DNA of 63,807 nt, the filler included, from Hausera hauseri (taxonomy: Eukaryota), in the NCBI GenBank assembly GCA_046269625.1. It is 12 parts of 12 records of this genome, joined end to end, with 100 filler letters (N's around TTAATTAATTAA, not from the genome) between each part and the next. Parts side by side here need not be neighbours in the genome. Positions count along the whole stretch, not along the records: positions 17,093 to 23,125 come from JBJURY010150200.1; positions 23,226 to 27,950 come from JBJURY010460245.1; 10 more parts are not named here. One strand, given 5' to 3'. This document shows, one piece after another, positions 230 to 45,769 of the stretch. The position numbers were made by a program, and so were the translations under genes. Below the pieces are notes generated by a model. The model ran no database searches and was not told the DNA's origin. It saw nothing but the letters and a program-made list of their open reading frames with translations. How positions within the stretch are numbered: the stretch's first letter is position 1; every line of letters starts with the position of its first letter.

Positions 230-1463
230 CAAAAAGAAACGACTTAAGTATCTTAGATCATTTTATGGTCCAGAGTATAGATCCAAGACGATATTGCGTG
301 CCATTTAAGACAGACGGAACCGTTAGAAAATCAGTTAAATACAAAGTAGTTGTATGGAACGCGAATAAACGAGTGATGACCCATTGCAATCTGCCTTATG
401 GAGCTCCATAAAGATGTTGTGTCATAAATTATGAAAACATTTATACCTTCACAATATGAATGTACTACAACACTACGAATGCCCACAAGGAGCGATAAGA
501 CGGCAAGTGAAATTAGTAATACCCGCCAAAGAACGGGTCAATGCAACAAAACACATTGACATAGCACAGTCAACCGATCCAATAAAATGGGTGTTGAATG
601 AAAACATAATTGGTATTTCTGAAGATAGGAAAAACAAATGTATCCAAATAGATACAAAAGGAAGATTGCCAAGCAACTAAGAGATCTCAATCCCTTTTAC
701 AAAAATGAAGGAGTTAAGTCCAGATTCCAATTATTGTAGTATCAAGAACACAGATCTTAGTATCTCTTGTCAAATCTCAGAAGGCTATGAATATAGGATT
801 CATTTTGACCTCTACGGAATTCGAATGAATAAGTCGAGCACTTATTTAGGGAGATACTGTTCAGACAGTAGAATCTGGAAAATTGCGGTCGAGACGACGA
901 CAACGAGATCGACTGTACCGGTAATCACCACTGTTAGGCTTACTGCGACAAAGAATGTTAACGAAAGAAAATTGCTTAAGATACCTGTGAAATGATGGAT
1001 ACAGAAACGTAAAATAATATTTTCGGTGGAAGAGAGGGTCAACTATGACGTCGAAATAAATTGCCGTACAATGTGCAATCATATAAAAAACCTTACTGAA
1101 AAACACATATTACGCCGAATGCAACTCATTAGTACCAAAGATAGAATACATAATGCAAATGCATACCAAAGACTTGCAGAGCCGAACCTTCGCGATATAA
1201 ACCCTAGAAGAAATACAAATAGCACCACATGCAGATAAAAACACAAGACAAGAAGTCACTACGGAGATAACAATTACCTAACCCGAAAAGTTGAATACAT
1301 TATCCATAATAATGATTGTAAGCCTGTCAACGCTTGTGCTTATAATATGTATCGCGATATTTCGATTAGTTGACGTAAATTGTTGAACTAAGCGTACTAA
1401 AATCATAGAACGGGAATTAAGGGTATTGGAACCCCGAGAATACATCTATGATAAAATAACCTG
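208..1463 (+). pseudogene. Fragmented Cys-containing type I membrane protein (env/glycoprotein-like) of a large retroelement
   Basis: Successive + strand ORF pieces with Cys and a Thr-rich stalk (ETTTTRSTVPVITT), ending in a hydrophobic helix TLSIIMIVSLSTLVLIICIAIFRLV (~1297-1370) and a basic tail; broken by stops and frameshifts. Confidence 0.4.
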
Positions 1464-1790
1464 ACAATTACAGATCGGGTTATTCTATCATCAAACAAAG
1501 AATTGGTTTTGGTTCAAAACTATACTTTATCATAAGATTAACACTTACTGTATACTGTACAGACCGGTAAGTACCCAGATCCAGAAAATGAACTCAGAAA
1601 AGGGTCGACGTAGTATCGACTATTTCTTGCAAAAATGTGCAACAGTGCTGATTCCCCATCTAAATAAAATTTTCGGCAGATTAATAACGAACTACATGAA
1701 AAGAATTTTGTAGAGTGCAAACGAACTAATGAGATCCCAAACAATTTAAAAGGGAGTACAGAAGAGAATCGAACAGTACGATTATACGCA

Positions 1791-2860
1791 ATGAGAGAAA
1801 ATAAAAACGTGCGGGCATGCGCTTTGAAAGAGATAATTCAGTACGAGCCAGTATATCACCAGAACATATTTATCCACCTAGCCGACGGTGAAATCTGTTA
1901 TAGGTTAAAAGATCAAAATTGGGATTCTGCACAAGGACGTCAACATAGATACAGTACTTTTCTAATCAATAGCGGAGATTTCCACCATTACAATTGTGAA
2001 TTGGAATTTCGAGTCGCCGCACTACCCGTCAAACTTATGATAGAAGTATGTTATGAAAAGGCGCCATTTATTCAGTTACCACCATTACGATTACAACAAA
2101 GGTTAACTCAGGAGGATCAAGACGACCACCTGCACTCCTTCTGATTAGTTCAAGATGCTAGAAATGCCAGGATTATTACTGTGAATTACGGAGAAGCAGA
2201 TGATGGAAATGACGTTCCAATTGGAGTATCTGTACGAGAAATGGGAGGAACCGAACTTTACACAGAAATTATTAGTCCTAGAAACAGAGTACGAGAAACG
2301 TATTTGGAACTTACTGGAATCAAAAAGAAACAATTAGTTAACGGGAGAGACATCAAATTAGTTCGTGAAGAATTAATCCATTGCTTGTATGGAAGTATAC
2401 TTGTTTGATATCAAATAAAAAAGATTATGGACGAGTTGAAATTACCTGAAACCCACGTGAGTGGAGTTAGAGAAATCGAGACTCATCCAGTAGTAATGAA
2501 TCAGATGGAACAGACCGTTAGCAAAAGAAATGGCTATTTACCACCAACCGTAGAAGGCCGATTTAAGTTAATGCTGGAAGCCATGAGCGGATAACACGTT
2601 CGGATAAGCCGACTGCTAACAGCGAGCCAACGTTCCCAATATTTAAGAGATATATACGCAGGACTCAAATGGGATCACAAATGGACTCCCTATAACCCGA
2701 GAAAAAACTTACGAAGCTCAACTAATTCCGAAGGATTAAGTTCGAAACACAGAAGGAACTTTAAGCCCTATTCCCCATCAGAACTGTTGAATCAATGCCA
2801 GGAGAAAGTTACAGAATTACCATTCAGAAAACCGAATCGAATAAAATCACAACAATAAAC
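1791..2860 (+). pseudogene. Accessory ORF: cupin-like domain followed by a catalytically dead REX4/ISG20-type DEDDh exonuclease domain
   Basis: ORFs 1791-2144 and 2181-2408 share one frame across stops; IITVNYGE...VPIGVSVREMGGTELYTEIISP...LTGIKKKQL...LYGSILV*YQIKKIMDELKL...ASQRSQYLRDIY follows the REX4 pattern AlDCE...RVSiV...G...yVkP...sGI...ilVGH...HsSveDA...LY with the acidic and His residues lost. Confidence 0.6.
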
Positions 2861-3517
2861 GAAACTGAAAACAAACCCAGCACCACTCAAAATTCAGAAT
2901 CAACTAATCAAAAATCCCAGGGTCAAGAAATGTTCAAAGTACCGAAAAACTCAAAAGGAAACAAGAAGAACAAAACAGCGAAAACATTCTTCACCGCAAA
3001 AAGGAAATTATCCTTGTACGAATATCTATTCAAAAAGAAAAATAAGGAAGAAGATAACAAAAAGGTAATTGCAAAACACAAAAAGCCCGAAAAGACAGAA
3101 ACCCAACACGAAATAATGACAACAGAAAAAGAATCTACGAGTACCAAAAGTCCGGACAAAACAAGAAAGATGCACTCAGAAGAAATAAAAAGAAAGACTA
3201 GACATCAAACCCAAAGGAGGAAGTCAGACAACGATATCATCCTCACCTAAGTGAAAATTTTGAAAAAGAAAAGATAGGAAGAAAACGTAAATTTTTCAAC
3301 GAATAAAGATTTCCGCAGACTACTAGTAACCTCCGAGTACTGTAACCACCAGAAAATAAAGGAAGCGATATTTTATGTAAAAAGCGCTGGAATACGAGAA
3401 ATACCAAATGGAACATACACTTGGAAAAACTCCGAAATAGGGAAATATTTAGCCCCAATATTTAAGTCAAAAAGGACTGGAAAGTAGACTGTTCCCGTAA
3501 ATAACCCAATTAAACTG

Positions 3518-4054
3518 ATGTTCAAGAAACAATATCAAACCTACCAGAAAGAAGGAGAAATTCCCGACTTAGATAAAGAAACCATCATGGACTGGACGTT
3601 AGTCTCCGTGAATTATGGCCCTAGAAAAAGTTCAATCAACAACCAGCAAAAAGAATTATACGGTTACCTATATTCCGACCAAAACGGACTAGTACTCGAA
3701 CAAATCCAAATTGTACCCAAAGTCGATTTAGATCGTGACGAAAGCACAAACAAAGATGAAGGCACCTGACCAGTATGTAGCGAAGATATCTAGCAAGGAT
3801 GTGTTAAATTGGACAACCAAGAATGCAGGCACAGATATTGTCGTACATGCTTAGAAACATGGACGATGGATCATGGGAAGACGACGTGTTTAGTATACCG
3901 AGCAGAGGCTAATGGCTTAAAATATTTTTCAAACGGTGAACGCAACAGATCTGTTCATATTCCAAATCAACCCAGTACTAGTTATGCTTTAGAGGCGAAC
4001 ACAGTTGACGACAGTAGTCTCCGGAGTAGACTGGAACTGCTGCGCCGACGATAA
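3518..4054 (+). pseudogene. Accessory ORF with a decayed C3HC4 RING finger
   Basis: In-frame read-through gives T*PVCSEDI*QGCVKLDNQECRHRYCRTCLETWTMDHGKTTCLVYR; the first Cys is now TGA and the last is TAC. Confidence 0.7.
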
Positions 4055-13095: not shown

Positions 13096-13197
13096 ATATT
13101 GTTGTTGTTTTTCTTCTTTTATTGTTGCTTTTTCTTTCATGATTCCAATTGACGAATATAAATATACGTGTAATTTGTTTGTTAGTATTAGATGATA

Positions 13198-13570: not shown

Positions 13571-13712
13571 GCAACACGAAATGAACGCAATGAATTTGTC
13601 TTTGGTGACATGGACAATAAACCTGTGTTTAAAGATTGTGATGATAATAATAATATTAGTTAGTTGTTTGGTTTGTTCTATAAAGAAAAAATGATTTTTT
13701 ACATGATAGGTA

Positions 13713-14205
13713 ATGGCGACAGGATTTATAGATATTGAAGCATTCCAAGATAACAATGCCCAGTACATAATAAAGGAATTATGCATTATGAATGCCGGTA
13801 TTATTTTCAAACCGATTGTATACGTATTCAAGCCCGGTATTGTGTGGAATGACCTGACGGAAGATGCGAAAATTACAAATGGATTTCTCTTTTGACATCG
13901 TCATGGACTTCATTGGTATGAATATAATTCAACATTTTTTGTGTCGTATATTATTTGCGAAATTTGTAATCGTTTTGACGTTGAAAATACAATGTTTTAC
14001 ATTAACGATCAAATTTACGGACCAAAGTTTACGCAACTACATTCACACTTTCCCGAGTTGCGAACGACTACGTTTTTAACATCGAAAAACTCGCTGGTGA
14101 TGGTACTTGACAATGTTAGATGACCATATCGTGATCATGGACCACATTGTTTCATGCAAATAAATATACGTATTTGTTTTCTCTTATGTAAATATGGTAC
14201 ATGAT
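13713..14205 (+). pseudogene. DEDD-family 3'-5' exonuclease-like Maverick accessory gene
   Basis: FIDIEAFQD...YIIKEL...YVFKP...WNDL...NGFLF*HRHGLHW: ExoI D-x-E plus the KEL/FKP/HGL.W signature. Confidence 0.65.
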
Positions 14206-15804: not shown

Positions 15805-16959
15805 TCAAAATTGCCGAGACTGTAACGTCCGATTAGACAGTGGACTCGATACTGAGGCGTTCAAATTAGACAAGGCTTTGTGATTTTCACAAACAGTGGA
15901 TTCCGTTTTACTGTTATGGTCGAATGGTAACGAATTCGCATTCTGACCAAATGACGTCACATCATTTGTTGCACTGTTTTCATTACTCCACGAATTCTCC
16001 ACAAATTCCATTCGACTGGTTTTGTTTGAATGGTGGCGATGTACTGAAATGTTGTGTCCTTCCATTTGCTCAACAACCTCCACGTTCGGGCTAACTTTAC
16101 TAACAGCAGTTTGTTCGATTTTATCGGCAGAATTGTCGTCCAACAATTTCGTGGATAATGCACATTCTTCATAATCTTTAATCAAACACGCTATATTCTC
16201 TAAAGCATCTTTGAACTCATCCTCCTCCATTCCTTCGCCGACATACCAATGAACGTAAGCTCTTTTTTGAAACAATATCTGAAACCGAAAAATGCTCTGT
16301 AACAGTGCATCAGTAATACAGGAATTGTTCGACAGAATGGAAACGATCTTGTCGGACTCACCAAAATGACTATCGTGAACGTGTATCGGTGACCTTTGAC
16401 ACAGCATTACTTTAACCCCAGTCGGACACCAGTCGACGAATGTTAGAGTTTCGTGAAATTTCAGTCGAGCTACGGTTGAACGAACGTCAACGGAGTTGAC
16501 ATTTCCTCGATACATCAAACAACAGGCTAACATTTTCCCACCGATGGGGTCACAACTCAACAGTTGTGATTTGCTCGTTAGAGCTTCTCGAGTTATGCAA
16601 AAGACGGAATTTGGCGAATGCATTTGCGTACTCGGACTATTGACCGGAGCCAAACTGCAAATGGGAAAATGCATTCGGGGATACGGTACGATGTTGTTGA
16701 GAATCTCTGTTGTTGATGAACTGTGATCACTATATCTAACGGATGATGTAAATACGTTAAAATATTGAGCCATTATTCGATTTATGTCGTTATAAGTCGG
16801 TTTAGCTTTCATCGGTGCTTCTGTAGCAATCCGAAACAATGATTCATTGTCAGCTAAAAATGTAACATCGGTTTCGTCAATTGTGTAGTGTTTGGTTAGA
16901 ACACTGTTGTATGGTTCAACTAATACTGGTGAAGAAGGGAATGATGGGTGGATGGACAA
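15805..16959 (-). CDS. Divergent alpha-tubulin, C-terminal two-thirds (5' part lost at the contig end), with a ~118-aa tail extension
   Basis: VEPYNSVL, DNESL, PTYNDINR, VPYPRMHFP, MLACCLMYRG, FVDWCPTG, KRAYVHWYVGEGMEE, KDYEE; uninterrupted ORF. Confidence 0.92.
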   Translation of the reverse strand: MSIHPSFPSSPVLVEPYNSVLTKHYTIDETDVTFLADNESLFRIATEAPMKAKPTYNDINRIMAQYFNVFTSSVRYSDHSSSTTEILNNIVPYPRMHFPICSLAPVNSPSTQMHSPNSVFCITREALTSKSQLLSCDPIGGKMLACCLMYRGNVNSVDVRSTVARLKFHETLTFVDWCPTGVKVMLCQRSPIHVHDSHFGESDKIVSILSNNSCITDALLQSIFRFQILFQKRAYVHWYVGEGMEEDEFKDALENIACLIKDYEECALSTKLLDDNSADKIEQTAVSKVSPNVEVVEQMEGHNISVHRHHSNKTSRMEFVENSWSNENSATNDVTSFGQNANSLPFDHNSKTESTVCENHKALSNLNASVSSPLSNRTLQSRQF

Positions 16960-17092
16960 ATGGATGGTTGGATGGATGGATGGATGGATGGANNNNNNNN
17001 NNNNNNNNNNNNNNNNNNNNNNNNNNNNNNNNNNNNTTAATTAATTAANNNNNNNNNNNNNNNNNNNNNNNNNNNNNNNNNNNNNNNNNNNN

Positions 17093-17899
17093 GATCCGAA
17101 ATTAATTTGGTAGGCGTATAATGTTCTGATACATTTTCACGTATCCTCGAATTGGTTTCTGATTTGTCCATATATCTTTTCCCTGTGGTCTTATTGAACT
17201 TTAGTTCTTTAATTTTAATAAAATTACAATTTCTTCCAGAAGAAGGTTCCCAAATTATAACCGAGCTTCTAAAAGCGCAAGTTCCGTCTTGTAAATGACA
17301 TTTTTGATTCTCTGTATATAATTTGGTGACACTATGGAACATTACCTTCTGTGATAGCATTTCTGATTCGTAGAAATTCACAACCACCACGTTTGACTCT
17401 AATCCTTTTCCGTTATAGTACTCTGCTCAATTACAATATCCGCTATGCATATCTGGTCTTCCGGCTACTACTTTATATGCCCTGATTATTTTTTTGGCTG
17501 CATCTCCAATTGCATACTATCCCATTGTATTTTCCCAGTTTCCTTGGCTTGCTTGTATTGTTGGCGCTCTAAGTTCATCGGAATTATTGGAGTCGTTAGT
17601 TTGATTATAGATGAGTATCCATGAACCAATCCACAGTAATAAATGCTACGCGATCGTCACAGCATGCGTTCCATTCCATCTAGCGATATCAATTCTTGCT
17701 GCTGATAGAGGAAATAATTTTTCTCTTTTGTCTCCAACTTGTGTAGTCTAGCATCTTCGCATACTTCCAGATCCATTAAGGAATATCTCTGTCCTAGCTT
17801 AAACTTATCGCAGTCGTAGACGGTTACAGCGTCTATATGCTTAATTATCATCATCAAGGTGAGTAGGCTAATTAGCCAATTCGATTCATTTTCCGGCAT
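17093..17899 (-). pseudogene. Chuvirus-type (class III, gB-like) envelope glycoprotein, N-terminal ectodomain
   Basis: Signal peptide WLISLLTLMMIIKHIDA, then VTVYDC...YSLMDLEVC...LYQQ...RSIYYCGLVH...GYCN*AEY...NVVVV...CHLQDGTC...IIWEP...CNF, the Cys and motif order of chuvirus G and Anakin-type env. Confidence 0.7.
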
Positions 17900-18297
17900 C
17901 CAACGTCCGCCGTTGTCAAATTACGTAACATATCATCGAATTTATTACCGTTTCGCCTGTCTTCTTCGCTGTCAAATAGTCTTGACCAATTTACTTTGTA
18001 GGGCAATCTTCTTGCTGATTTTCGTGCTAAGCTTACCGCTCTATTGATTTTATTTTCTCGATTGGGGTTTATTTTAATAGCTAGGTATAGTAATACTTTC
18101 CTCAATTTCTCATTGGTATTTTCTATCATGATCTTTTCTATTACTGCTTCGCCGGTCAAATTACTCTTCGATAGCTTAAAACGTAAGCTTCTCATCATTC
18201 TAGCTACGTTGAATATTATCTTTTCTCTTTCATCTAATATATCGCCTTGAAAGCTTGAATAATTTACAATTCGTATTAAATTCTTCATTAACCCGCT

Positions 18298-19038
18298 TCA
18301 TTCTTCATTGTTTGTACTGAGGGTCGAAATCGACATCTGTTTCAGTTCCTTAATTAGTTCTCCATTGTAATCGACTCCTTCTCGCGTCTTCCTAGGCCTA
18401 CCGACTGAACGTTTCGGCCTTTGCCCTTTTGTTGTTATTTCGCTGAGTGGTACTAAATTTATATCGTATTGTTCCTTATCTTCATCCATTTGTAAATACT
18501 CAAAATACATTGCAGCATCTCGGACTCCCATAATTTGTCCTACGCATTGCTCTTCCTTGGCCTTACGCGTGGTTTCCTCTTTTGTCTGTTCATTAGCTAT
18601 TGTTACTACTATGCGGTTTGTTTCGTCGGGGATAATCCCGACGTCTATTAATTGTTCTAGGTCGGCGAGTGTTCTACCTATAAAGTAGAATGTGTAATTT
18701 AGCTCGTTTGCTCCGCCATAGTTTAATAACCATTCTCTTACTTCTTTTACGTAGGAATATCTAGTTAGCTCGCATTCTTTTACATTTATCCATTCGGATG
18801 ACACCATTACTTTTATTGTTACCTTGGGTATAGCCCTTAAAATTTTATAGTATTTTCTTATAAAAATTTTCGGCACCGTACTACAAATCGCATTCTCACT
18901 AGATAATTTAGTTAATGTCGGAATAAGTTGTTTTAACTTACTTTCATTAATGTTTTCGTTAATTAGTTCAATAAAATCCTTTTCAGTTAGCGCTGATTCT
19001 AGTTCATCTCCACATTGAACCTCCTGTCCTGCGGGCAT
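18298..19038 (-). CDS. Accessory ORF with a ubiquitin-like domain (~18595-18828) and an AT-hook (~18384-18414)
   Basis: VTIKVMVSS...YVKEVREWL...FYFIGRTLADLEQLIDVGIIPDETNRIVVTI is ubiquitin-like (LIF.GK.LED..TL.DY.I); KRSVGRPRK is an AT-hook. Confidence 0.6.
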   Translation of the reverse strand: MPAGQEVQCGDELESALTEKDFIELINENINESKLKQLIPTLTKLSSENAICSTVPKIFIRKYYKILRAIPKVTIKVMVSSEWINVKECELTRYSYVKEVREWLLNYGGANELNYTFYFIGRTLADLEQLIDVGIIPDETNRIVVTIANEQTKEETTRKAKEEQCVGQIMGVRDAAMYFEYLQMDEDKEQYDINLVPLSEITTKGQRPKRSVGRPRKTREGVDYNGELIKELKQMSISTLSTNNEE

Positions 19039-19603
19039 GTTTCTATGTCATTTAGTCGTACTGGCGACATAGGTTTTACGGCCAGTATTGCGTCGAAGTA
19101 TGCATCCAATTCCGGTCTATTTCCGACATTTGGGAGTCCAGCGCCTACTAAAGCTACACTTGTTCTTTGCGCGTTTTCTCGAATTTCTTTCAATTTTGGC
19201 TGTATTTTCTTTATCTGCGTAGTTCGAAAACCCACTCCATTTCCACAGGCATATTGAATCCCTTTTGGTAATAATCTGTTAATTCAATAATTACATCTTT
19301 TCGATATCTTTGTACGAATTCTCACTTATTTTTGATTTCTGATTCTGTAAAAGCATATTTGTTTCGGTAAATTTTGAGTTCTTTTGCTAGTTCATCCAGC
19401 CTCTTTGCTCTTTGTTTTGTTCTGATACATGTTTCCTCCACTTGATGTAATTTGGGCATCAATTGCCTCATCTTCTCATCGTTAATTTCTGCCATTTCTA
19501 CCAATTTCGTTTATGACTTTTGAGTCTGGATCCAATGCATCCGATAATTTCTTTACGAACTTAGATTCTTGAAAACTAAGATGTTGGTCATTTCCTACCG
19601 TTA

Positions 19604-20866
19604 TCAGTCGGTATGGAAGTTCTGATCTGATCCGGTCATCCATTCTTGAGGTTTATGCAGAAATTTTATCCTGTCCGTTAAAGTTGCACGTTGTTCCGGG
19701 CAAATATCTAGGGTTTTGATGTCTTGGACAGAGATTTCGTTAATAGGTTTATCTGTTAAATGTTGAACTCCTTCTAGTCGGACCGTTCTTAATATTGGGT
19801 AAAAATTGCAAGTCATATTCCGCTTTTGGGTAAAATTCGTCTCTTCGACCATTTTATAGATTTCTTCCAGTATTGTTGCTTCTTGTTTCTTCTTCATAAA
19901 ATTAAGTTGTAATGCTTCAAAACGCGTTCGGGTGCATATTTCTGCGAGTATTGTATCTAAATTACGTGCGCTTTCTTCTAATTGCTTCTTTACAGAAGGC
20001 TGGCTCTCTGGGAATTCTTCCTTACGGCTTTCCATTAATTTGCTTAGTCGCATCATTAATTCGGACCATTTCGACAGTTGATTGGCGATTATTGGCTTCG
20101 CAATTATAGCCTTATCTAGCATCTTATATGCATCTTTTAACTCATCGTCCGGCCCTCTTAGGAAATCCATAATCCGACCGACATAACTAAACGCATACTT
20201 ATATGCGTCCCATTCTACAATACAAGCCTTTACATATTGAGTCTCTTGGTGATTTGGGGACATAATTCGGTTCCTTAAGCTACAAATCTGTGCTCGCATG
20301 TTATTTTCTATCTTAATTCCATTTTCTAGGTTTGTATATTGTTTTGGCGTAGCTAATGCGATTTTTATCATCTCCGTCAAGGGAAGAATGTCTATCGGGT
20401 CTATACCCAATATTTCCAAATCAATATTACTTCGATGGTTAACCGGTTTTTCCCTAAGCTGATTAATCATTGCGCAACGAATTTCATCCATCGTACGTTT
20501 TAAATTTCGGACCACTCTCTTCAATTTTGGGCTTGTTTCTAAGGTTGACAATAGCATTTGCGCTTTAGTGACTTTTGCCTCGACACTATCTTTATTTTTG
20601 CTCCATCCTTCTGAAAATTCTACTACGCTTTTAATCCATGATTCTAATTCATGCTTCCATTTTAACAATGTTTCAGGTAATACCTCTTCAGGTTGTCTCA
20701 AGTCGATCGCTTCGGCAAGTTTTCCTTCACTACATAGTTTCAAACTTTTATATAACCTCTCAGCATACTGCTGTTCTTTTAAAGATATATCTACTTGTTC
20801 GCTAATCTCCATAAGCCTTTCTAAATTTTGCTGCAGTATTTCTGGATCGTGGGATCTAATTCGCAT
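19604..20866 (-). CDS. Helical/coiled-coil accessory protein of the giant element, unknown function
   Basis: 420-aa open frame, E/K/L-rich heptad-like composition, collinear with gag. Confidence 0.5.
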   Translation of the reverse strand: MRIRSHDPEILQQNLERLMEISEQVDISLKEQQYAERLYKSLKLCSEGKLAEAIDLRQPEEVLPETLLKWKHELESWIKSVVEFSEGWSKNKDSVEAKVTKAQMLLSTLETSPKLKRVVRNLKRTMDEIRCAMINQLREKPVNHRSNIDLEILGIDPIDILPLTEMIKIALATPKQYTNLENGIKIENNMRAQICSLRNRIMSPNHQETQYVKACIVEWDAYKYAFSYVGRIMDFLRGPDDELKDAYKMLDKAIIAKPIIANQLSKWSELMMRLSKLMESRKEEFPESQPSVKKQLEESARNLDTILAEICTRTRFEALQLNFMKKKQEATILEEIYKMVEETNFTQKRNMTCNFYPILRTVRLEGVQHLTDKPINEISVQDIKTLDICPEQRATLTDRIKFLHKPQEWMTGSDQNFHTD

Positions 20867-21599
20867 TTTCTTTAATTCATCGGCGTTTTTCCGTGAACGT
20901 CGGACTTCCCATTTCTTTGGATCGAAATCATCAATATTTGCCTTTCTTCCTCACTAGTGGAAAGTGAGCAAATTTCGTTAATTTCACTTATTAGATTTAT
21001 AGGTTCCCTTACCTCGGTAGGTGAAAACGAATCAATTTCTGGTGTAACTAGGTTATGCTTTGCGTCGCTTTCTATAACGATATCCGTATTTTTCGTTTCT
21101 TCTATTTTTTCCCTAGTTATTTTGGAGCGTGAACGACTTCTACGTTTCGTCTTTGGAGAAGGGCTATGGCCTTTATTTTTTGTAATTTTAAGTATTAATA
21201 GTTCCATAAATTCTTTTTCTGCTGTATCGTCATCAGTAGACTTATCTACCTTTTTAACCATGAACTCAGGCTCTCCCTCTAAGTCGACTGCTGTCGATGT
21301 GCCCGGTTTCTCAGACGGTTTATTACTGGTCGGAACACAATTTTTCCGTGTCATATCACTTCGCTTTGGTGCTATTGCATGTTCTTATTCAGTTTCTAAC
21401 TGTACCAGACCACGATATACTTCTAATAGTCTCAGCTTGTCTCCATATTCTTTTCTATCCATCAGAATTTGTGGGTTAATAGTTTCAGGCTGAGCATCTA
21501 GAAATCTTCGTAAGTTTTGTATGTCGATGATAGTACCTGTGTCTCCGCGAACACCATACTTCGCTTCTAAATTTTCATTACTTCTGACCATACTAGTCT

Positions 21600-22833
21600 T
21601 GTTTGGCTCAGTAAATGAAACGCTACGTGGGTTTGGACATGACCTTAAAATATGTCCTTCCTTACCGCAAGTAAAACAGACTAAATTTTCATTTTTTCCG
21701 ATTCTCTGTTGACCGTCTTCATTTACAGGTGAATTAGGCCGATTCGAACTTCAATTGTACTGATTCTGTGCGCTAATTGCACTTCTTCGATTATCATCAT
21801 CACGATTCCAGTACTTTGAACCTTTGCAATTTCCCCTATTCTATCCCAGTTAAAATCCGATCTATTTATATTTTGTTCATTAGTGTAGTTATTGCCTCGG
21901 CTATTTCTGTAACTGCTATTATTATTTCTACTTCCATAATTTTTGTTACCCGTAAATTGTCTGTCGTCTCTTCCACGATTGGCGTTCCGATTTCTGTCGT
22001 TGCAATCACTTCGATCATTATTTTTATCGTTTCTATCATTGTGTCTGGCATATATGTCAAGTGCCATTTCTAAGTCCTGAGCTAATTTGTAAAGTTTCTT
22101 TAAAATTTTCAGGTCTAGCCAAAATCAATTGTTTAACAAAATATCGTGACCAGATACCATAAATTAATTGAGTCGTCATCATGACATCTAGATTTGGCAG
22201 TGTTGCCTTTTCTGCGGCATCGCGTTCCGCATCTGTTTTGGCTCTAGCTACATTGGCTGTACGCAGTGTGTTTATGTAACTATTAGCCAGTTTCGTCAAC
22301 GCAAATGCGAATTAGGTTACTGATTTACCCTTTTGTTGTATTCTATTCTGAAATGCCATAAGCTTCTGCTGCGGCGTTATTGTCGGTAATAATTTACGGC
22401 TTTGTGCTCATACCAGGGAGGACCAAGATTTCTTCTTATCGTTTGTGAGCTCACTATAAGAGTCAGCGGTTAAGTTTTTCAAATACAACGACAAGCGTTT
22501 AATCATTTCTTCGGGAGTAAGACTAACACCTTGTGCGTGCAATTTATAAGTTCTCAAAAATTTATTAAGCCCGTCCGGGTCACCATCGTATGCCGGCAGG
22601 TTCAGAGAATCACAAGTAAAGATGTCCAGTTTCTGCGCTACTGGTGGGCTATCTGCTGCCATATTAGTTGCGTAATTTATCTCTAAATTTGGTTTATTTA
22701 TTTTGTGCTTCACACGTAGAATTTTAAATGGCTTATTTTGCTCGACGACGTCTAATTTGATTCTATTTTTTGAATTCGAACGTTTATCTACTTTTTGCGT
22801 ATCTCTATATATGTTTCGACGTGCTTCACGCAT
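21600..22833 (-). pseudogene. gag: Gag (capsid, N/R-rich linker, CCHC zinc knuckle)
   Basis: LPAYDGDPDGLNKFL...LSLYLK...AFQNRIQQKGKSV; knuckle VCFTCGKEGHILRSCP at 21637-21678. Confidence 0.85.
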
Positions 22834-23040
22834 AGGTGAATTATCGTTTAATACACGGTTTGCTTTTGACTTATCAATGCTTGTTCTCGATTAAAATTTG
22901 CGTTACTTATCCCGTTCAATAAACTTATATAGCCAATTTGATTTAGTTTCAACTATATCGAATTATTTGGTGTGAATGGCGCTGTTCGCCAATATATAAT
23001 TATTTAACTCTCAAAAGTAAGTCTAGAGAGGTACAAACTG

Positions 23041-23057
23041 TCCTGCTAGGGTCGTCA
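23041..23057 (-). promoter_or_regulatory. Putative tRNA-Arg-type primer-binding site
   Basis: Minus strand TGACGACCCTAGCAGGA resembles TGGCGA.C..GCCAGGA and lies ~200 nt upstream of gag. Confidence 0.4.
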
Positions 23058-23225
23058 AATATTATATATTGGGGTGGCCCTTATACAACTCCCACTATAA
23101 CAATATCTACCCTTGAAATTTTTAGNNNNNNNNNNNNNNNNNNNNNNNNNNNNNNNNNNNNNNNNNNNNTTAATTAATTAANNNNNNNNNNNNNNNNNNN
23201 NNNNNNNNNNNNNNNNNNNNNNNNN

Positions 23226-23809
23226 ACCTCTTCGGGTTTTTCTTCATCATCACTTACTGGGTTAAAATCACATTTTCTCAGTCTTCCTCCCTTTTTCTTA
23301 GTGCCTATTTCCATAGTGATTTGGTAAGTATTTCCTGTAAGTAATCCATAATCTACAACATAATCATTATCGACGGCTGTTCTACCGTAAACATCTGTTT
23401 TCGCTATTATATTAGTCTCAAGGTCTAATTCGTCCAATACTTTTCTTCGGAGATCCGTAAATTTGGTGAACATTCCTGCTGTGACTTCAATTACTTGTTC
23501 TCGTTTGTTAGTTTTGATTTCTATATTTATAATATATGGTTGCTTTCTTCTATGTTTCCGTCTTAAGTCTCTTCCTAAGGTCTTTAATGATTTTCTTGCA
23601 GCTAGGAAACAAAACATCTCATCCCTTGTCAGTGGTATAAGTAATGATGCGCATTCTATCCGGTTGTTTAATGATAGTGTTTCATATTGTCTCAAAGCAT
23701 CCCATACTTCATTGGGTGCTGAGTCGATCAATTGTAATTTAGCCTTAATTGTTTCTACTACTAACTCTGAATTTTCACCATATACTATGGATCCTGGTGG
23801 AATATTCAT
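23226..23809 (-). CDS. Accessory ORF with a ubiquitin-like domain (~23300-23540)
   Basis: INIEIKTNKREQVIEV...KFTDLRRKVLDEL...VYGRTAVDNDYVVDYGLLTGNTYQITM. Confidence 0.6.
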
Positions 23810-23905
23810 CTCCGGGATAATTTTTGGATTTTTGATTGGTGATAATGTATTCTCGGGATACTGGAGCGTATATGGTATTGATATCAGGTCATCATCTAAA
23901 ATTTC

Positions 23906-24916
23906 CTATATCTCTTCGTCTGTTATCTGATGTTCTTTCTTAGATGTACTTGGTTGCATGGAATCCCAGATATTTTCAAATAACGTTGGTCGTTGTGGTG
24001 GAACCGTTGGTTGGATGAATGGTGCGACTAATCTATCATCATATGGGTCTATCCATTCCCCGGTTGGTCTAATTCTGACAAGTTCTTGCGAATATTTATC
24101 AGCATCCATATCTGGATATCTTTGAGTTATTGGTTCGATTACCGGGATTGGTCTTGCTTCTTCAGTTTTCTCTAATTCTTTTATCGCTGGAAAAGCTATT
24201 TGTAACGTCTTTCGGCTTTCTATTATCCATGGTACATTATATTCCACTCGTGTCGTTTTCAGGTATTCATCTAAACATCTTTGTGCCATAATTTCCGAGT
24301 TATGACCATTATATAGGTCTAAGCATTTGTAGTTCCTATTTGTCTGTTCCAGATCATAGATAGCGGTTAGATTTTCGGGGTTTATATTCAATGTATTCAA
24401 CAATTCTGGTAACTGACGACCAATAATCGTTTTACCTGGTAAATATCTATCCATAAATTCGCTTATTGATTCTTGTCGTTGCGGATTGAATCGTCTACTA
24501 TATTCAGTATACTTAGTAGTATCCGGTAGGTTTGGGTATACATGAATATTAAGGATTGTTTTTCCTTCCAAATTTTTGGCAGTGACTTGAGTAAGTCCTT
24601 TTTGGTCTCCTTTAGTTATACATCTACCAGTAAGAATTATTTCACTGTCTTGCATTACAGGCTCATCCACAGCTAATATTGGTATATCCTTAAGCAATTG
24701 TATTAAATATACCGCGCAGTTATCCAAAGGTTGAATCTGATAATCTCCTTCATAAGGATAGTTAGGAAGTATCTTAGTTTCTTTAGAAACTATTACTGTT
24801 TTATTATTAATTTGCAATCGAGCTTCTCCTTGGTTAGTAATTATAGCACAAGGTGGATCCTTTCTTTTGATTCGAATATCAGTCCTTTTACGGTAAATCT
24901 TATCGATACCTCCCAT
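23906..24916 (-). CDS. Accessory ORF: cupin-like domain plus dead REX4-type DEDDh domain (~24255-24645)
   Basis: IITNQGEARLQI; IILTGRC...LTQVTAKNLEGKTILNIHVYP...YLPGKTIIGRQL...IYDL...GHNSEIMAQRCLDEY (compare gHsSveDA.a.m.LY). Confidence 0.6.
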   Translation of the reverse strand: MGGIDKIYRKRTDIRIKRKDPPCAIITNQGEARLQINNKTVIVSKETKILPNYPYEGDYQIQPLDNCAVYLIQLLKDIPILAVDEPVMQDSEIILTGRCITKGDQKGLTQVTAKNLEGKTILNIHVYPNLPDTTKYTEYSRRFNPQRQESISEFMDRYLPGKTIIGRQLPELLNTLNINPENLTAIYDLEQTNRNYKCLDLYNGHNSEIMAQRCLDEYLKTTRVEYNVPWIIESRKTLQIAFPAIKELEKTEEARPIPVIEPITQRYPDMDADKYSQELVRIRPTGEWIDPYDDRLVAPFIQPTVPPQRPTLFENIWDSMQPSTSKKEHQITDEEI

Positions 24917-25949
24917 ACAAATCGATCCTTGTTCAGCTATATCCGCGAACTCTATTCTTTCAGTTTTCTTGTCCTCAAACAGTTTATCTCATTTCTGAAC
25001 AATGCTTATGTCCATGCGCTGCAACACTGCCTCTGGAATTAAGATAGTATTGCATGTCATTTCACGTTGGAGATATCCATCGTTCTTATATAAAGGCCTA
25101 CTTGGAAAAATGAAATATAAAGGTCCTTGACGGTTAAGTTTAACCTGGTACTCTTGTTGTAGATTATTCAATTGTTGTAACAATGTATCTTCTCTTTTCC
25201 AATGGTCATTTGGTAAATTAAAATTCTGATCTACACTAAACGTACCAAAAATATCGGATTCCTTCAATTGTATTTCTTTAAACAACCATGGCAATTCTAC
25301 TCCAATTATAAGTTTTCCACAGAGTATTTGTCTAAGATGTTCATAGCATTTTTTTTCTCCCTATACACATCTTCCAATTCAATTATCAGATCCCCCTCGA
25401 TATTCTCTATTCTTATTTGGTTAATTTTTGATTTCTGTTTTTGTTCGTTAGTTTTATCTACTGCTACAAAGGTTGAAAGTAAATTTTTTATTTCTTTAGT
25501 TTCTGGCCATAACATGTATGGAAGTGTATTTCTTTGGATATCTGGCACTTTTCGTTCTGCCTGTTCCAATTGTTTTCTAGTTATGAAGGGTTTTTCCAGG
25601 ATAGTATTATTGGTTGGCAGTTCAGGTGTTAGTTGATGAGATTCCGTTACAGATTTTGTCATTAGCAAACCCGTAAAAGCTGATTTAGTTTGTTCATTAA
25701 AAGTTACTGAGCGGCGAGGCGAAGTGTTTCTTTCGTCGCTATTGCTTTTTCTGTTATCCGACAAATTTCCTTTTTCTCTCGTAGGACTACTATAAGGTGG
25801 TATTGCCGAATCCAGTTTTCTCTTATTGTAATTCCTAGAATGTTCTGGCGTCGAATTCCTATTATACCTTTATGGAGAAACACTCCTATTTGATGATATT
25901 TCGTTTCGTTTGAAATTGTAGTCCGACGATCGAGTATATCTATCATTAT

Positions 25950-27850
25950 TACCATTTAATCCTGGGGAAGGAGTTCGGTTTCCGCCTCTTGAAGGGTATG
26001 GACTAGGATTTCTATTATATCTATCCGATTCTTTTCGAGTCGGAGTGTAGTCGCGTCTTGTATCGTAATTTCCCGATCTTGAATCATTATAATCAGTTCG
26101 ATTATCGTTTCTAGGACTATGTCTTTCTCTACTATCACCCCGTCGATTATCTCTTTCTCTCTTATCACTTCTATTAAAATTATTATATCTTTCACGACTA
26201 TCCTGTCTTCTAAACCTTTCTCAACTCTCACTTCGCCTATCATTAGGATAGTTAGATCTTACTTGTTCCCGTCGATTATTTGGATATCTTGTTCGACTAT
26301 CGTCTCGTAGATATCGTGCTTGATTATCATCCCGTGGATATCGTATTCGACTATCATCTCGTTTATAGTATGAATTTCTATCCTCATAACGCCCAAAATT
26401 TCGGTCGTTGCTATATTTTTCTCTACTAGGGAATCGACTTTTATTATCATTTCTGTCTCTCGAATCACCTCGTGTTCTATCATATCTATTATCGTTTCGC
26501 TGTCGATCATCATAGTTTCCCCTATTTTGTTGATACTGCATATCTCTTTGGTTGCTATTATAATTTCTGGATGCTTGATTAAAACTTCTTCTTTCCGGGG
26601 TATTGCTTCGTTGAAATGTGTTGTTATCTGATCGGTTGGGACTTTGACTTCTCAATGAGTCCCTCCAAGGTGAATTACTACGATTTGGTACATAAGGTCT
26701 TACTAGTAATGGCGTCGTAGCTACTGCTGCCATTTGCATTTGGTTAGTCCATAAAGGTGTTTCATCTATTCGCGTTGCCATTTTTCTAGTATAGTCTATT
26801 AATTCATTAATATTGTTGGCAGTATGAAACTTAACTCCTTCTCTTAAGGGTGGTAAAAGTCCTAGTACAAATTGTTTCATTATCATGGCACTGAAAGCAT
26901 TTGCGTTATGACCAAAATATCTAGTCATTGCCGTTTTAAATCTATTAATGTAGATCAACACTTCTTCATTGGGCTTCTGCTTACAATTTTGGAATTTCAG
27001 ATGTCGATTCTCTTGTATATTAACCTGTTGATTTTGTAGAATTCTTTCTCGGTGTTGTAACCAAGTTTCGTTTACTCGTGGGGGTAGACGCGTTATTGCC
27101 ATCCTTAAATCATTATTCACATGTACTTGTAGGAGTGATATTTTCTTCGCGTCACTCCAATGCATGGCAGTGGCCAGAGAATCATATTTATCTAAGAAAT
27201 CTTCCAGGTCCGATACTCGTCCTTCATACGGTTGAAGGCGGGGAAGTGTTTGATATTTCTCTTCTCTTCATTGCAGTCATAGATAATATTATTATTGTTA
27301 GAATCACAGTTATATCTGTTTCGAGGAGCCGATGGCTCTCGATTATCCCTTTGTGGGTCCATGTTGTCGCTATCGATGTCAGAAATTTCACAAGACACTG
27401 AGCTTACATCTATTGAAAATTCAGATGTATGTACCTTTTCTTGACGTCGGGTTATTGCTTCTTCTGTCCTTGCTTGCTCAAGGCGTTCATTCAATCGGTC
27501 TATATCTCGTATCAACGTCTCTATTTAATTTCTAGTACAATTATTTCCTTCTTGAATCTGTTTCTGTTCGTTTACTATAACTGTTACGTGGTTCTGCATA
27601 TCATTTATCCTTTGTCTTACTTGTCTTTCATTGTTATCTATTTGTTCTCTGTTTCTATATAATGTAGCTATATTATCGATAGTTTGTTGTCGAATATCAC
27701 GCATTTGTCTAGAATAGATGCTAACTTCTTGTGCGAGTTGACCAGTTTTCTCATCCAATTCATTTAAACCCATACTATTATCATTCACTTTTTGCTCTAT
27801 TTGGGTGATTCTTCCTTCAACTTCGTCTAATCTTATACCATTATTCATAA
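25950..27850 (-). pseudogene. gag: Gag with an N-terminal coiled coil and a long Arg/Asp/Asn-rich C-terminus lacking CCHC
   Basis: HWSDAKKISLL...FQNCKQKPNEEVLIYINRF...KQFVLGLLPPLR, typical retrotransposon capsid motifs (Q..NE.V..Y..RF, F..GL). Confidence 0.85.
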
Positions 27851-28050
27851 CATCTGTCTCTATAGTTACTCCTTGTCGAGGTATATCCTGTATTTCTTCT
27901 ATTAGTTGTCGTATACTGTCGTCTGTTCGATCCTGTCTTGATCTTAAATCNNNNNNNNNNNNNNNNNNNNNNNNNNNNNNNNNNNNNNNNNNNNTTAATT
28001 AATTAANNNNNNNNNNNNNNNNNNNNNNNNNNNNNNNNNNNNNNNNNNNN

Positions 28051-30839: not shown

Positions 30840-33800
30840 GGGGAATGGAACACAATATTTGTTCAAGCGACGTTAAATCATCACCAACAACTTCTCCCTG
30901 CTTACGATTTTATCTCGATAAGGAAGGATTGGCATCCGAATTGCTCCAAGTTCATAAAGCATAGGCAATATCTACCGTTTTAGTTTCTTAACAGGACCAA
31001 GCATATTCTTTATTATCTGTTTTACTATGAGATACTTATAAAAAACTAATTAACGTTTCAGCATTGCTAACCAGTGCTACACCGTATGATGCAATACAGC
31101 AGGGAATTCTAAAACTAACTGATCCGCCATACGAACACTTAATTAAGAAACATTTCGTATGTAATCAGTTGGGTAACTCCACGCCGTCAGACCATCTTAG
31201 AAAAGCGTGATGCGAATTGAATCGACTGAACTGTGGGGTACCAGAAAACGAAGCATTTTCCGTCAACTTTTTCTTCCAGCATATATCCAAATGCTTTTAT
31301 CTATTGTCCAATGAGATACAAAATTAGACGATTTTGCAGCTGCCGCTGACAGAATTTATGAAACCTTAAAAACTGCACAAATGCCTACTATGCTGACCTC
31401 TCAGATACAGGTCTAAAATAAACTAGTTACGTCTACAGTCGATCAGTTACATCATTCACATAATTCTTCAAAAACCCTTGTTTCCCCGTCTTTTCACACT
31501 TCCCAGATGTAATTGGTAATAAAAGTCAGGAAAATAGAACTCGTGTCTCTGAATAACACCAAACAAGAAGATTGTATAAAAGTTCCCGTACATTTTCGGG
31601 TGCTAAGATTAACCACCAAGATTTACAATATCCAACACCCAGTAATTTGCAACAGTGATATGATAAGTGGTTTAAATTTTTCTTGAATGAAATCTCAATA
31701 TTGATTTAAACGACCCTCCAATGAAAACATCGAAACGAAAAAACAGGATGAAATACCAAAGTGTATTTTCTACGAAATGTCTAACTTTAACAGTAAAATT
31801 ACAATGAAAATGAAAGTAAAATTTCAATCAACAACTTGAAATGTTCATATTATCTTTAACTTGTTGTTTACTGTTAGAATTACTTTAAACAATATTGTTG
31901 TATTTACAAAAGGTCAGGAAAGTTCGGCATTTATCCATAAAACCACCGGCAATACTTAGTCTATCGGTTGAATATGACAGTCTGAATATGACAGTATTTC
32001 CAGTTGTAAATGCCATTGGAACTCGATGGTCTGATTATCCAAACTGAGGCCTTGAAATGTCTAGGCAAATCGAATTAATGTTTGTTTCACTTGTGAGATT
32101 CGCATTTCCCACTTGATATGTTGCATTGATATACGTATCGATAACATTCTCATTTATTTGCGCTTCTTTAACTAGAAAATCGATCAATTTACGAACGTGT
32201 CTTGCGGTTCAGATATTTTCCTTCACTGTAAATAATAATCCAAATCATTTGTTTTTTGAATATTTGAAACCTTCATTAGAACCACATAATTCAAAGCAAA
32301 CAATATACGAATTAATGTCGGTGAACGTTCTCAACATAATTTATCATTGTTGCGATAGAAACAAATCTCTGTCTAGAATGCATCACCGACCGTTGAACTG
32401 TTGGAAAACCCTTGACTTCGTTTTGAATTACCTTGTGGAAACATTTTATTCGGACTTCCAAAATTCATTTGAAAATAGATTTTGATGGAAGTATTCAAGT
32501 ATGTGATATTAAAATGTCGAATGTAAGCTTAGTTCAACGGCAAGATACTCCGAGGGAGAAAAACCAGGCCGCGGCCAACAGCGCAATCCGGGCGAAACCG
32601 ACGCACCCTCCAGTATCCGGCCAAAATGGGCCAGGGGGCCTCAAAGCATGGTGGGTACCACACAAGAATTCCATATATCAAACGGATCAGAAAATCTCAC
32701 TACAATCACCAATAGCTAACCTTTCAAATATGTTTAACGATTTTATTCATACCTAATCCATACAATATCGACGTACAAACGACACAATATACCGCCTCAC
32801 TAAACAAACCCCTCCAATAACAATTTAGATTCATTTGCTTCTATCGCACAAAATTCAAAGAAACTAGGAAATACTATATAGGATGCCGATTCTATAATAA
32901 ACAAAATTGTTACATTTTTCCGACATGTATTTTTCATTCTAAATATAGAAACGCTGCACAAAATTGTCTGAAAAGTTGTACGGACCAAAACAGTTATTTC
33001 ACAGAAGACAACGATCTTGAACAGTCAAGAAATCAAAATTATCCACACAAACCATATTTAAACTAACTAGCAAGCCCAAGCCTCCGGTAACCTTCGGTTC
33101 TGGCCTAATTACTACTTTGCAGATCCCTACTCTTCACAAAATTCAACATCTCCATACATATTTTAATAACAGCGTCACTTGAATCATCTCAAAACTCTCT
33201 CGTGGATTTTTAAGTCGATACTGGTTTTTCTATTTTTGTTTTTCCTTTAAGCTACAAAAATGACAATAACTGTCAAAATAGTAACGTACTTCTTGCTGCA
33301 AATGGTACTATAATACGTACATCCGGACACCGTTAAATATTATTCAATATCCATAATATCCCCAGTACATTCACTTAGACAGTAACTGATATCCAACAAC
33401 CATTCTTGGGGTCCGACATCTTTGAAGAATTTGAACTACTACTGCCACATGACACTTATTTAAAAGTCACAAATAGCAAACATTTAATTCAATCTAACTC
33501 TTCGCCAAAAGCACTAAAACCTTGTCCGAAGAACTGCAGAGTTGCTACAATTCATTAATTAAGATTGTTCCAATATTATTAACAAATCTCTAAATTCTAA
33601 AAGTCCATGCGAAGTATTTCACTACATAAACACAAGCTCAAACTTCCAATAACATAACGACGACGAGAGTTGACGCAAAGCTGCTGAACAAGAATTCCTA
33701 CAACTCGAAAAAGACGGTATAGTTAGGCGGTCTACATCACCCCGGACATATCCATTACATATGGTATCCAAAAAGGATAACACGATAAGACCCTGTGGAG

Positions 33801-37756: not shown

Positions 37757-39626
37757 TTATTCAAAGTGATATATGTACTCACCATCCTTTAACCATGCAT
37801 AAATGGAGTTTTTTTCTTTATCGGTGTCCGTATTTTTGATCGGCATCCAAATCGTTTTATTTTGTCTTACTGCCAAGAGTCCTGATAATGAGTGAGCACT
37901 CTCTTGGTTACAATGCTGGTAATAATTTGGGTAGGAATAACCACTTGACATCTAATTTCAGTAATATTCGAAGCTCTTTCGGGGTTCATCTCAATTGGTA
38001 AGTCTAAAATGTCTGAGAACTTTCTGTATGAGATGAGCAATTTCCTTTCTCCGAATAACTTGGTATATTGTGCTGCAATCAACCTGTTTCCGATGGACTC
38101 CCAATCAACAATTTGTTTATGGCGGATTCCTAACTGCAACGAAGCGCTTTTCTCATCTATTATCTCATCTAGTACTATTGGATCAATGAAACCATTTCCC
38201 ATAACCATCAGAAGTATTCCGTTAACGCAAACTTTGTCCACCTTGGAGTCCGTGAGTGAACGTAGTAAATTTTTCATTAGGTCGTTGCTTTTTACTGGAT
38301 CAGTTTGAGTGGAGACATTCGTAGAATTAGCACTGCTCCATTTGCGTTTTGTGGCTGTTTTGGAAGATATTTTATCTTCGTCGTCAAACATTGGTTCTAA
38401 TACTTCGCAATCCATTACTTCAAACTCCTCTTCCTGTAGCTGTTATTACCACTTTAGCTACATTTTCTTTCGTCACTGTAGCCTGTGTATCGTATTTCCA
38501 TTGAATTCCGACCATATACTCTCTCTTGCGATTTAATAGATCTCCGAAGTCCACTATGTTATTATGGAGATCTGGAGGGATCTATTCATAAGTCTTGGTC
38601 AATTTCTTATGGGCTTCCATTGCAAGTTGTAATCGTCTTTTTGTAGTACTGGGAAACCATGGTAATGTCAAGGATTCTATCATCTGACTTAGTGTCTTGA
38701 TACGAGTGCCTATGGTATACTCAGCACAGTTTAGGGAATCAAAAACAGCGCAAGTTCTGTCTACTGGAATACTTAGGGCCTTGAAAGTCTTGTGTGCCTC
38801 CAATGCTACTATTTTGTATCCCAGGATATATTTCTCGAATTTTTTTGAACCATATGGGAATCTTTTACTTTTCTATTTGTTCCCATTTTATTACGTGTCG
38901 TATACTGTTTAAATTATGATAGTTTGATTAAAGATAATTTCTCAATTTTTCTGCAATGATTAGTTCGATCGGTAGTGGAACTTATAGTCCGTTTGACTTG
39001 TGGACGTATGCAAAAGACGCCGCTACATATCTAGAACTACTGGATTTACTGGTATATAGAATGTTCGTTTCATCCAATAATTCTTCATCCATAGGTTCCA
39101 CCTTGTATTTTATTGTTAACAAGGATGGAATTTTCTTTTCCATTCTAAAAATTTCTACCATTCCAATATTGATTATCCCTTTAGCGATGAATCGAATATG
39201 TTTTGAATCTATTGGATAATTAATTTGGCAAGATTCTTGACCGACAACAGTTTCTAGTGAATTTTTCGGCCTTTTTCTCTTCTAAATATCACCATGATTT
39301 TTCCAATGGTGACATGTATGGTCATTCCAATGTTGTTTACAGTCCACTGCGGTAGTTTAAGTGTGCTTTTCGAATTGAATATCTTGAAAGGGAAAATTTC
39401 ACGGTTTCGTTGCTCTCCGTATTTAAGTATGTTAGGTTTTTTGGTGATTTTGCTTATTCAATCCATTGAGTTGTCTAGACATGCTATTATCTTGTCATAA
39501 AAGGAACAGGTCATATTCCTTTCTGCAGTGCTGAGTCTTCGTATCCATTTATCTACGTCTCTCTTGTCTATCGAAACTGTTTCATGTCGTTTGAAGATGT
39601 CTGTTCCTCCAAATTTCGAGTTAGAA
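37757..39626 (-). pseudogene. Accessory region of a giant element: cupin-like domain plus two tandem dead DEDDh-like domains
   Basis: IHVTIGKIMVIF; RYVAASFAYVH...PIELIIAE...KYILGYKIVALEAHKTFKALSIP...VFDS (38582-39035); second copy VLDEII...LGIRHKQIVD...LFGERKLLISYRKFSDILDLP...ITEIR aligns by eye with the contig-1 domain. Confidence 0.5.
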
Positions 39627-45768: not shown

Positions 45769-45769
45769 A

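Follow-up and report, generated by a model that had tools for sequence, protein, structure and literature searches.

Introduction

Burro (GYPSM1) elements are giant Gypsy retroelements of Schmidtea and Dugesia in which one frame encodes, in this order, gag, an Smc-like coil, MATH, Ubi2/SUMO-like and BCL2 domains, a mononegavirus-like envelope protein (env), protease, dUTPase, reverse transcriptase (RT), RNase H and integrase; the polyprotein is 4,873 residues long and has two or three CCHC knuckles, the internal length reaches 25 kb, and the elements occur in high copy number, with a RING-type finger in the accessory domains (cargo) and decayed planarian copies noted (PMC6431247). They are the only described Gypsy elements that combine an in-frame env between gag and pol with apoptosis and ubiquitin cargo, and this cargo has been catalogued in few species so far. 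Here, we analyse a 63,807-nucleotide stretch of Hausera hauseri DNA (GenBank assembly GCA_046269625.1), hereafter the window, which consists of 12 contigs joined by spacers and in which two separate contigs, c4 (positions 17093-23125) and c5 (23226-27950), probably carry elements of the Burro kind.

A related arrangement is found in the GAG-ENV-POL errantiviruses of Platyhelminthes, Nematoda and Bryozoa, which carry an env of the herpes simplex virus (HSV)/glycoprotein B (gB) type, arose in several unrelated clades and include six Schmidtea elements with 1-215 copies; the survey took gag within 5 kb upstream of env and, in the parts available, describes no cargo domains (PMC13524379). In the rotifer long terminal repeat (LTR) elements Juno and Vesta, a separate third open reading frame (ORF) encodes an RNase D-like DEDDy domain with intact catalytic residues (PMC5408684). 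The Anakin BEL/Pao elements of mosquitoes carry a chuvirus glycoprotein, the same env class as that encountered here. In Anakin, env follows pol.

Domain organization of the two contigs

Our preferred interpretation, held with high confidence, is that c4 and c5 are the decayed 5' parts of two divergent Burro-like GAG-cargo-ENV-POL Ty3/Gypsy LTR families of an invertebrate, probably a flatworm (Table 1). Both contigs are coding on the minus strand, where stop-free stretches of at least 100 residues cover a fraction of 0.75 of c4 and 1.0 of c5, whereas in 100 shuffles the fraction averaged 0.01 and peaked at 0.11-0.16. No similarity was detected between c4 and c5 or between either of them and contigs c1 and c7 (blastn, tblastn), and among 16 pieces of c1, c4, c5, c7 and the c5 relative P0001 compared by hhalign only the ubiquitin-like pair of c5 and P0001 exceeded 20% probability. 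The initial annotation of this DNA had described two independent, mutually divergent contigs in which gag is followed on the same strand by several kilobases of coding sequence devoid of protease, RT, RNase H and integrase; this description holds, profile and motif scans of both contigs being negative for these enzymes.

A protein homolog search with the c5 cargo returned two relatives, P0001 and P0002, both metagenome proteins. P0002 (1339 residues) contains coil, capsid, tail and cargo in a single frame and matches c5 at 63-64%, the capsids being 60-85% identical; a spectrin-type match in its coil region is weak (E = 0.003). P0001 (1963 residues) contains gag tail, cargo, ubiquitin-like and BCL2-like regions and env in one frame and matches c5 at 59% over 704 residues, spanning the whole c5 cargo. 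Downstream of the c5-like cargo, P0001 has an acidic linker, then a helical region and finally an env that is nearly complete (PF24664, E = 2e-63, residues 1345-1952, the match stopping at profile position 591 of 653), with two hydrophobic segments at 1336-1359 and 1904-1935. The end of c5 maps to P0001 residue 1129, ~215 codons (~0.65 kb) short of env. Conservation between c5 and its relatives is 82-88% in the ubiquitin-like, 65-85% in the DEDDh-like and 35-45% in the linker regions. Judged by these proteins, the gag-cargo-env order of c4 also applies to the c5 family. A query with the C-terminal half of env matched none of 6713 shorter candidates, and a search of a 1.84-billion library, with a query that was coding only over its first ~190 residues, returned the same two proteins and one low-complexity chance match and is hardly informative on distant relatives.

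Since P0001 and P0002 are single frames, the c5 cargo is part of a polyprotein and not an insertion. The initial annotation had itself allowed for accessory ORFs that are unrelated insertions, and this does not agree with cargo in frame with gag (P0002) and with env (P0001). An origin of the cargo frames by unrelated insertion or chimeric assembly downstream of ordinary gag genes would be conceivable in short-read contigs of a repeat-rich genome, and c4 is heavily broken, with stops and, by eye, seven or more frame switches. Such an origin is nevertheless extremely improbable, as two independent records keep gag with cargo, and cargo with env, in single open frames at ~60% identity, and c4 is covered along its entire length by thousands of diverged contigs of run X1; for c5, which has two frame switches and few stops, it is already largely refuted. 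The copies in the window, carrying stops and frame switches, are probably inactive.

The Gypsy-type capsid that had been assigned to both contigs is confirmed in c5, where the PF03732 match lies above the cut-off. In c4, the capsid motif is recognized by eye; the region has no Pfam or PDB match, its hhalign probability against the c5 capsid is only 0.7%, and within c4 gag the CCHC knuckle, of the ordinary CX2CX4HX4C pattern, is the one significant match. The chuvirus-type env is borne out by PF24664 in c4 (E = 6.2e-8, profile positions 6-127 of 653) as well as in P0001, and the two env sequences share 24.6% identity over 130 residues (E = 3e-5). The earlier view of large virus-like Gypsy-type elements with cargo downstream of gag is upheld; none of the contigs spans a complete element. 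The c4 cargo between knuckle and env totals ~3.3 kb; its linker and helical-looking region, the latter a 448-residue open frame at 19607-20950, gave no family match at a useful E value and no related locus.

The c4 family is high-copy and diverged. Run X1 contains 15786 contigs that match c4 at at least 80% identity and cover 30 of 30 bins: 540 at at least 99%, 1858 at 95-99%, 6035 at 90-95% and 7353 below 90%. The bin at the candidate c4 LTR has the highest summed contig depth of the 30 (21205), which is only a hint, the env bins being high too. Next to this LTR lies a word starting with TGGCG that we take to resemble a primer-binding site (PBS); no host transfer RNA (tRNA) to pair with it was found, the window containing 0 tRNAs.

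Table 1 Features of contigs c4, c5, c1 and c7, in 5' to 3' order of the coding strand within c4 and c5
Contig	Feature	Positions	Strand	Evidence or remark
c4	Candidate 3' end of 5' LTR	22992..23125	-	Directly upstream of PBS-like word
c4	PBS-like word starting TGGCG	22974..22991	-	~100 nt ahead of gag frame
c4	gag N-terminus and capsid-like region, stop-broken	22060..22890	-	By-eye motif likeness to c5 capsid
c4	CCHC zinc knuckle (nucleocapsid), downstream of Arg/Asn-rich stretch	21631..21681	-	PF00098, E = 6.1e-6, above cut-off
c4	Cargo: charged linker and long helical-looking region, several frame switches	19003..21384	-	
c4	Ubiquitin-like stretch	18600..18840	-	Label by eye
c4	AT-hook-like word, GRPR core	18388..18414	-	Seen in sequence; no profile match
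c4	Helical pre-env region, at place of BCL2-like domain	17875..18297	-	By eye
c4	Chuvirus/gB-type env, N-terminal part from signal peptide on, broken, cut by contig end	17093..17872	-	
c5	Coiled-coil-like gag N-terminal region, cut by contig start	27450..27950	-	39.5% to P0002 124-342
c5	Gypsy-type capsid domain	26740..27267	-	PF03732, E = 3.3e-5, 24.5 bits (cut-off 24.1)
c5	Arg/Asp/Asn-rich low-complexity gag tail, without zinc knuckle	25700..26700	-	Same tail in P0001 and P0002
c5	First cargo region	24700..25699	-	38-75% to P0001 in 40-residue windows
c5	DEDDh-like region without acidic ExoI/ExoII residues (by eye)	24190..24699	-	
c5	Ubiquitin-like stretch, best conserved part of cargo	23290..23545	-	82-88% to P0001
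c1	Separate decayed cargo-like frame, no gag in contig	450..4051	+	
c7	Decayed A-rich coding stretch	37870..39626	-	DEDDh-like by eye only

Comparison with described elements

The layout is that of published Burro anatomy (PMC6431247) and of GAG-ENV-POL elements (PMC13524379), so that the new system proposed in the initial annotation is not sustained. A Retrotrans_gag capsid, a coil and a mononegavirus-type env in frame after gag are shared with Burro, as are high copy number and decayed copies, and stretches labelled, partly by eye, as ubiquitin-like and BCL2-like stand at the corresponding places; P0001 runs from gag tail to env with no pol between them, c4 keeps the same order in broken form, and the env of both is of the chuvirus/gB-like type, as in Burro. 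The RING finger of c1 also recalls the one in Burro cargo. In contrast, the DEDDh, cupin-like and AT-hook regions found here are not part of Burro cargo in the available text of PMC6431247, whereas MATH, BIR and ankyrin domains of Burro are not seen here. A single CCHC knuckle is present in c4 and none in c5, compared with the two or three of Burro, and gag to env takes ~1,700 codons in c4 and ~1,900 in the c5 family, the polyprotein probably being shorter than the 4,873 residues of Burro. The case of a described family with the same domain order, foreseen in the initial annotation, is thus largely realized for the order, by Burro, while part of the cargo differs. Apparently new relative to the literature available are the conserved, apparently dead DEDDh-like module, the beta-rich stretch preceding it, the long helical domain and the AT-hook; no DEDDh cargo in Burro or GAG-ENV-POL elements was found in the literature, of which Grohme 2018, Repbase and Sacco 2022 may list more. 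The contigs would extend a known oddity and not constitute a new system, unless pol is truly absent.

By eye, the env is closest to the Schmidtea rows of the errantivirus table (PMC13524379). The block after the fourth-to-fifth cysteine of the c4 and P0001 env matches the six Schmidtea rows, a pattern consisting of the cysteine, LK..F, G..F/Y and a later TP; between c4 and Smed_3, 9 of 21 residues are identical, followed by a common TPT word, and the last 390 nt of c4 have a by-eye likeness to the Schmidtea env rows. The block was not seen by eye in the nematode, bryozoan, branchiopod, cnidarian, ctenophore and collembolan rows available, nor in the 34 insect rows compared, out of 124. The same design could belong to an independent lineage, sit in a non-flatworm host or have pol apart (in a separate ORF, of BEL/Pao type or otherwise), given the several unrelated origins of GAG-ENV-POL (PMC13524379), the presence of chuvirus-type env in BEL/Pao and the failure of the c4 and c5 cargo to align. 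We consider this distinctly improbable: in addition to the likeness to Schmidtea, the succession of ubiquitin-like region, BCL2-like region and env is specific to the Burro description, and the c5 capsid is of the Retrotrans_gag type.

With Juno and Vesta, the present elements share the capture of a DEDD-superfamily domain by an LTR retroelement; they differ in that the domain is ISG20/REXO4-like DEDDh, lies inside the gag polyprotein and lacks its acidic residues, and in that env is present. Troyka, which has no env and a CX2CX8-10HX4C knuckle, was rejected as a relative because env is present here and the c4 knuckle is of another pattern.

Cargo domains

Both contigs had been said to carry a ubiquitin-like domain. 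Neither stretch has a Pfam or PDB match, the labels being by eye, and the c4 stretch does not align to that of c5. An AlphaFold model of the c5 stretch has the beta-grasp-like order strand-strand-helix-strand at low confidence (predicted local distance difference test, pLDDT, 39), and fold searches with it gave nothing significant. The cupin-like label of the initial annotation likewise found no family, Pfam or PDB match for the beta-rich stretches; in c5 the stretch so labelled by eye (~24700-24988) ends the first cargo region, for which no family or PDB match was obtained either. The AlphaFold models were poor (pLDDT 28.8 and, for the c5 ubiquitin-like stretch, 38.8), and searches with them gave no significant match, the top rows, RNase H-fold terminase nucleases at E = 0.15, being no evidence. 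PDB sequence searches were blank or at chance level for whole P0001, the A1 profile, the c4 ubiquitin-like stretch, the c1 and c5 beta-rich stretches and the c4 capsid.

In c1, the DEDDh-like stretch at 2145-2600 aligns to ISG20L2 (E = 0.003) and ISG20, and four of four PDB matches are DEDDh nucleases. For c5, the best ESM Atlas hits are RNase_T clusters and an arenavirus nucleoprotein, with ten of the ten best in one family or clan; at 0.77, under 0.9, this is a lead only. The dead DEDDh of the initial annotation can thus be aligned in c1 and is a lead in c5. By eye, the acidic residues of ExoI (D-x-E) and ExoII (D), as judged against the ISG20 alignment of c1, are missing in c1, c5, P0001 and P0002; the module is therefore regarded as DEDDh-like and probably catalytically dead.

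The helical region adjoining env in P0001 ends in a BH2-like word. Bcl-2 family proteins account for 57 of the 60 best PDB rows obtained with this pre-env stretch (E = 0.4-1.5, BH2 region only), no Pfam Bcl-2 match was found and the ESM Atlas was blank; the BCL2-like identity is suggestive, not significant. The corresponding c4 region has BH1-like and BH2-like words in different frames by eye, has no Pfam match and does not align to that of P0001. Just ahead of the BH2-like word, P0001 residues 1202-1273 show a weak death-domain likeness and are possibly part of a death-fold/BCL2 hybrid region. The GRPR word in c4 we take to be AT-hook-like. No Pfam match to MATH, BIR, ankyrin or AIR1 domains was found in c4, c5, P0001 or P0002; these vary among Burro elements, and cargo of such types could be encoded by accessory ORFs that the contigs do not reach.

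Position of pol

None of 65 stop-free frames of at least 55 residues on both strands, and none of six X-read coding frames, matched a pol family. A motif scan of c4, c5, P0001 and P0002 found no protease, RT, RNase H or integrase motif except a chance GPY word on the non-coding strand of c4, while its controls worked (an RT motif was detected in c6 and a protease motif in c12). c5 ends before env and c4 inside env, and the P0001-bearing contig, of 7573 nt, has only ~1.7 kb outside the frame, too little for pol. All of the records end before or at the Burro-type position of pol, so that its absence from them is uninformative. Truncation by the short contigs most likely accounts for the missing enzymes, pol being expected behind env, past every contig end. 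The cargo "instead of pol" of the initial annotation thus lacks support, and its other option, pol further downstream, matches the published Burro order, pol itself not being observed in these records.

Alternatively, the elements could be pol-less enveloped satellites that encode only gag, cargo and env, form particles and borrow protease, RT and integrase from an autonomous Burro-like or ordinary Gypsy helper. They would then be a high-copy family with one polyprotein of capsid, host-manipulation cargo (pseudo-nuclease, ubiquitin-like and BCL2-like parts) and env, copied in trans, a defective-interfering or satellite "metavirus" established in the germ line of an animal. None of c4, c5, P0001 and P0002 has pol, P0001 ends right after env and has no longer relative in the range searched, and ordinary Gypsy pol occurs elsewhere in the genome (c6, c12). 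Such satellites are unlikely, as this reading needs a coincidence with contig ends, every record stopping before or at the start of Burro pol; the P0001 env match stops at profile position 591 of 653, and the order up to env copies that of an autonomous published element (PMC6431247).

Several observations weigh against the assignment of c4 and c5 to Burro-like GAG-cargo-ENV-POL families. No pol or second LTR was observed linked to c4, c5, P0001 or P0002, and P0001 ends 11 residues past its env match, as either a stop codon or a contig end would have it. A query with P0001 residues 330-1963 returned the same two proteins among 4876 candidates and no longer relative among proteins of 1079-3436 residues, and related-locus scans of viral and metagenome contigs found none. 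No X1 piece among those listed spans gag to env (the longest listed is 561 nt), and X1 may derive from the same sample as the window. None of the BCL2, ubiquitin-like, cupin and c5 DEDDh labels has a significant match, and a death domain heads the PDB rows obtained with the P0001 pre-env stretch (E = 0.12; Pfam Death, E = 0.15). Finally, the likeness to Schmidtea env is a by-eye comparison that, among insects, covers 34 of the 124 rows.

As candidates for the missing pol, the RT and RNase H of c6 and the gag-protease of c12 were rejected, each standing in an ordinary gag-protease-RT context, and the dUTPase of c3 was rejected because it lies among Polinton-like frames and does not adjoin pol. 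The c6 sequence (33150-34817, plus strand) represents ordinary Gypsy protease, RT and RNase H in decayed form (PF17917, E = 3e-22), preceded by a gag-like stretch; that in c12 (59852-61200, minus strand) is a decayed ordinary Gypsy gag with knuckles, directly followed by protease (PF13975, E = 7e-5).

Proposed mechanism

By analogy with Ty3/Gypsy biology and Burro, an intact element would be transcribed from its LTR, primed by a tRNA and translated into one polyprotein whose frame would continue beyond env into protease, RT, RNase H and integrase. Its own protease, together with host signal peptidase, would release capsid, cargo domains, env and enzymes; the signal and anchor segments would insert env into the membrane, with the parts on either side of it remaining cytosolic. 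Reverse transcription would take place inside capsids, followed by integration, and env may permit cell-to-cell spread.

With much lower confidence than the reading as a whole, roles can be suggested for the cargo. The BCL2-like part might act against apoptosis of the host cell and the ubiquitin-like part might counter or make use of ubiquitin pathways. In planarians, Burro is repressed by PIWI (PMC8532177), and dead DEDD folds serve host PIWI-interacting RNA (piRNA) biogenesis (PMC5408684); speculatively, the dead DEDDh module might bind RNA as a shield or act as a decoy of the piRNA machinery. Kept at 65-85% over three copies, it is a candidate transposon-encoded RNA shield or piRNA antagonist. 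That two unalignable families in one genome keep gag, a ubiquitin-like region and env in this succession but differ in the intervening parts suggests a slot for interchangeable accessory modules between gag and env, comparable to that of complex viruses.

Other features of the window

The initial annotation had also placed related accessory modules in c1 and c7. In c1, the frame contains Ig-like, beta-rich, dead DEDDh, Lys-rich and RING (~3770-3890; PF00097, E = 6e-5) parts, which bears out the DEDDh-like and RING claims; a Rho_GDI match (E = 4e-4) is below the cut-off. No family match was found for any module of c7, and neither contig has alignable similarity to c4 or c5. In c1 as in c5, a beta-rich stretch comes immediately before the probably dead DEDDh-like part, without alignable sequence between the two contigs, and the c1 frame ends after the RING finger, like a stand-alone accessory ORF.

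The remaining contigs hold mariner, hAT, Harbinger, Polinton-like and ordinary Gypsy pieces, and the genome is therefore of animal type. Contig c8 (41405-44039) has Harbinger-type DDE_Tnp_4 and MADF frames, c10 (51000-53057, minus strand) an open hAT transposase frame of 685 residues and c12 (62901-63371) a mariner HTH_48. In c9 (45031-48546, plus strand), decayed frames of a protein-primed DNA polymerase, presumably of Polinton/Maverick type judging by eye from its motifs, gave no Pfam match in the pieces scanned; the region lies between inverted repeats. Contig c3 contains short virus-like frames (12280-14200, plus strand), among them a dUTPase piece (PF00692, E = 0.002) and a DEDD-like frame that we assume to be of the kind found in Polintons, and an intronless, strongly divergent alpha-tubulin (15805-16992, minus strand; best PDB match E = 1e-71 over 270 residues) with an extension of ~110 residues past the usual C-terminus, which is not diagnostic of the host. 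A diverged tandem repeat array of ~1 kb occupies 57770-58810 in c11.

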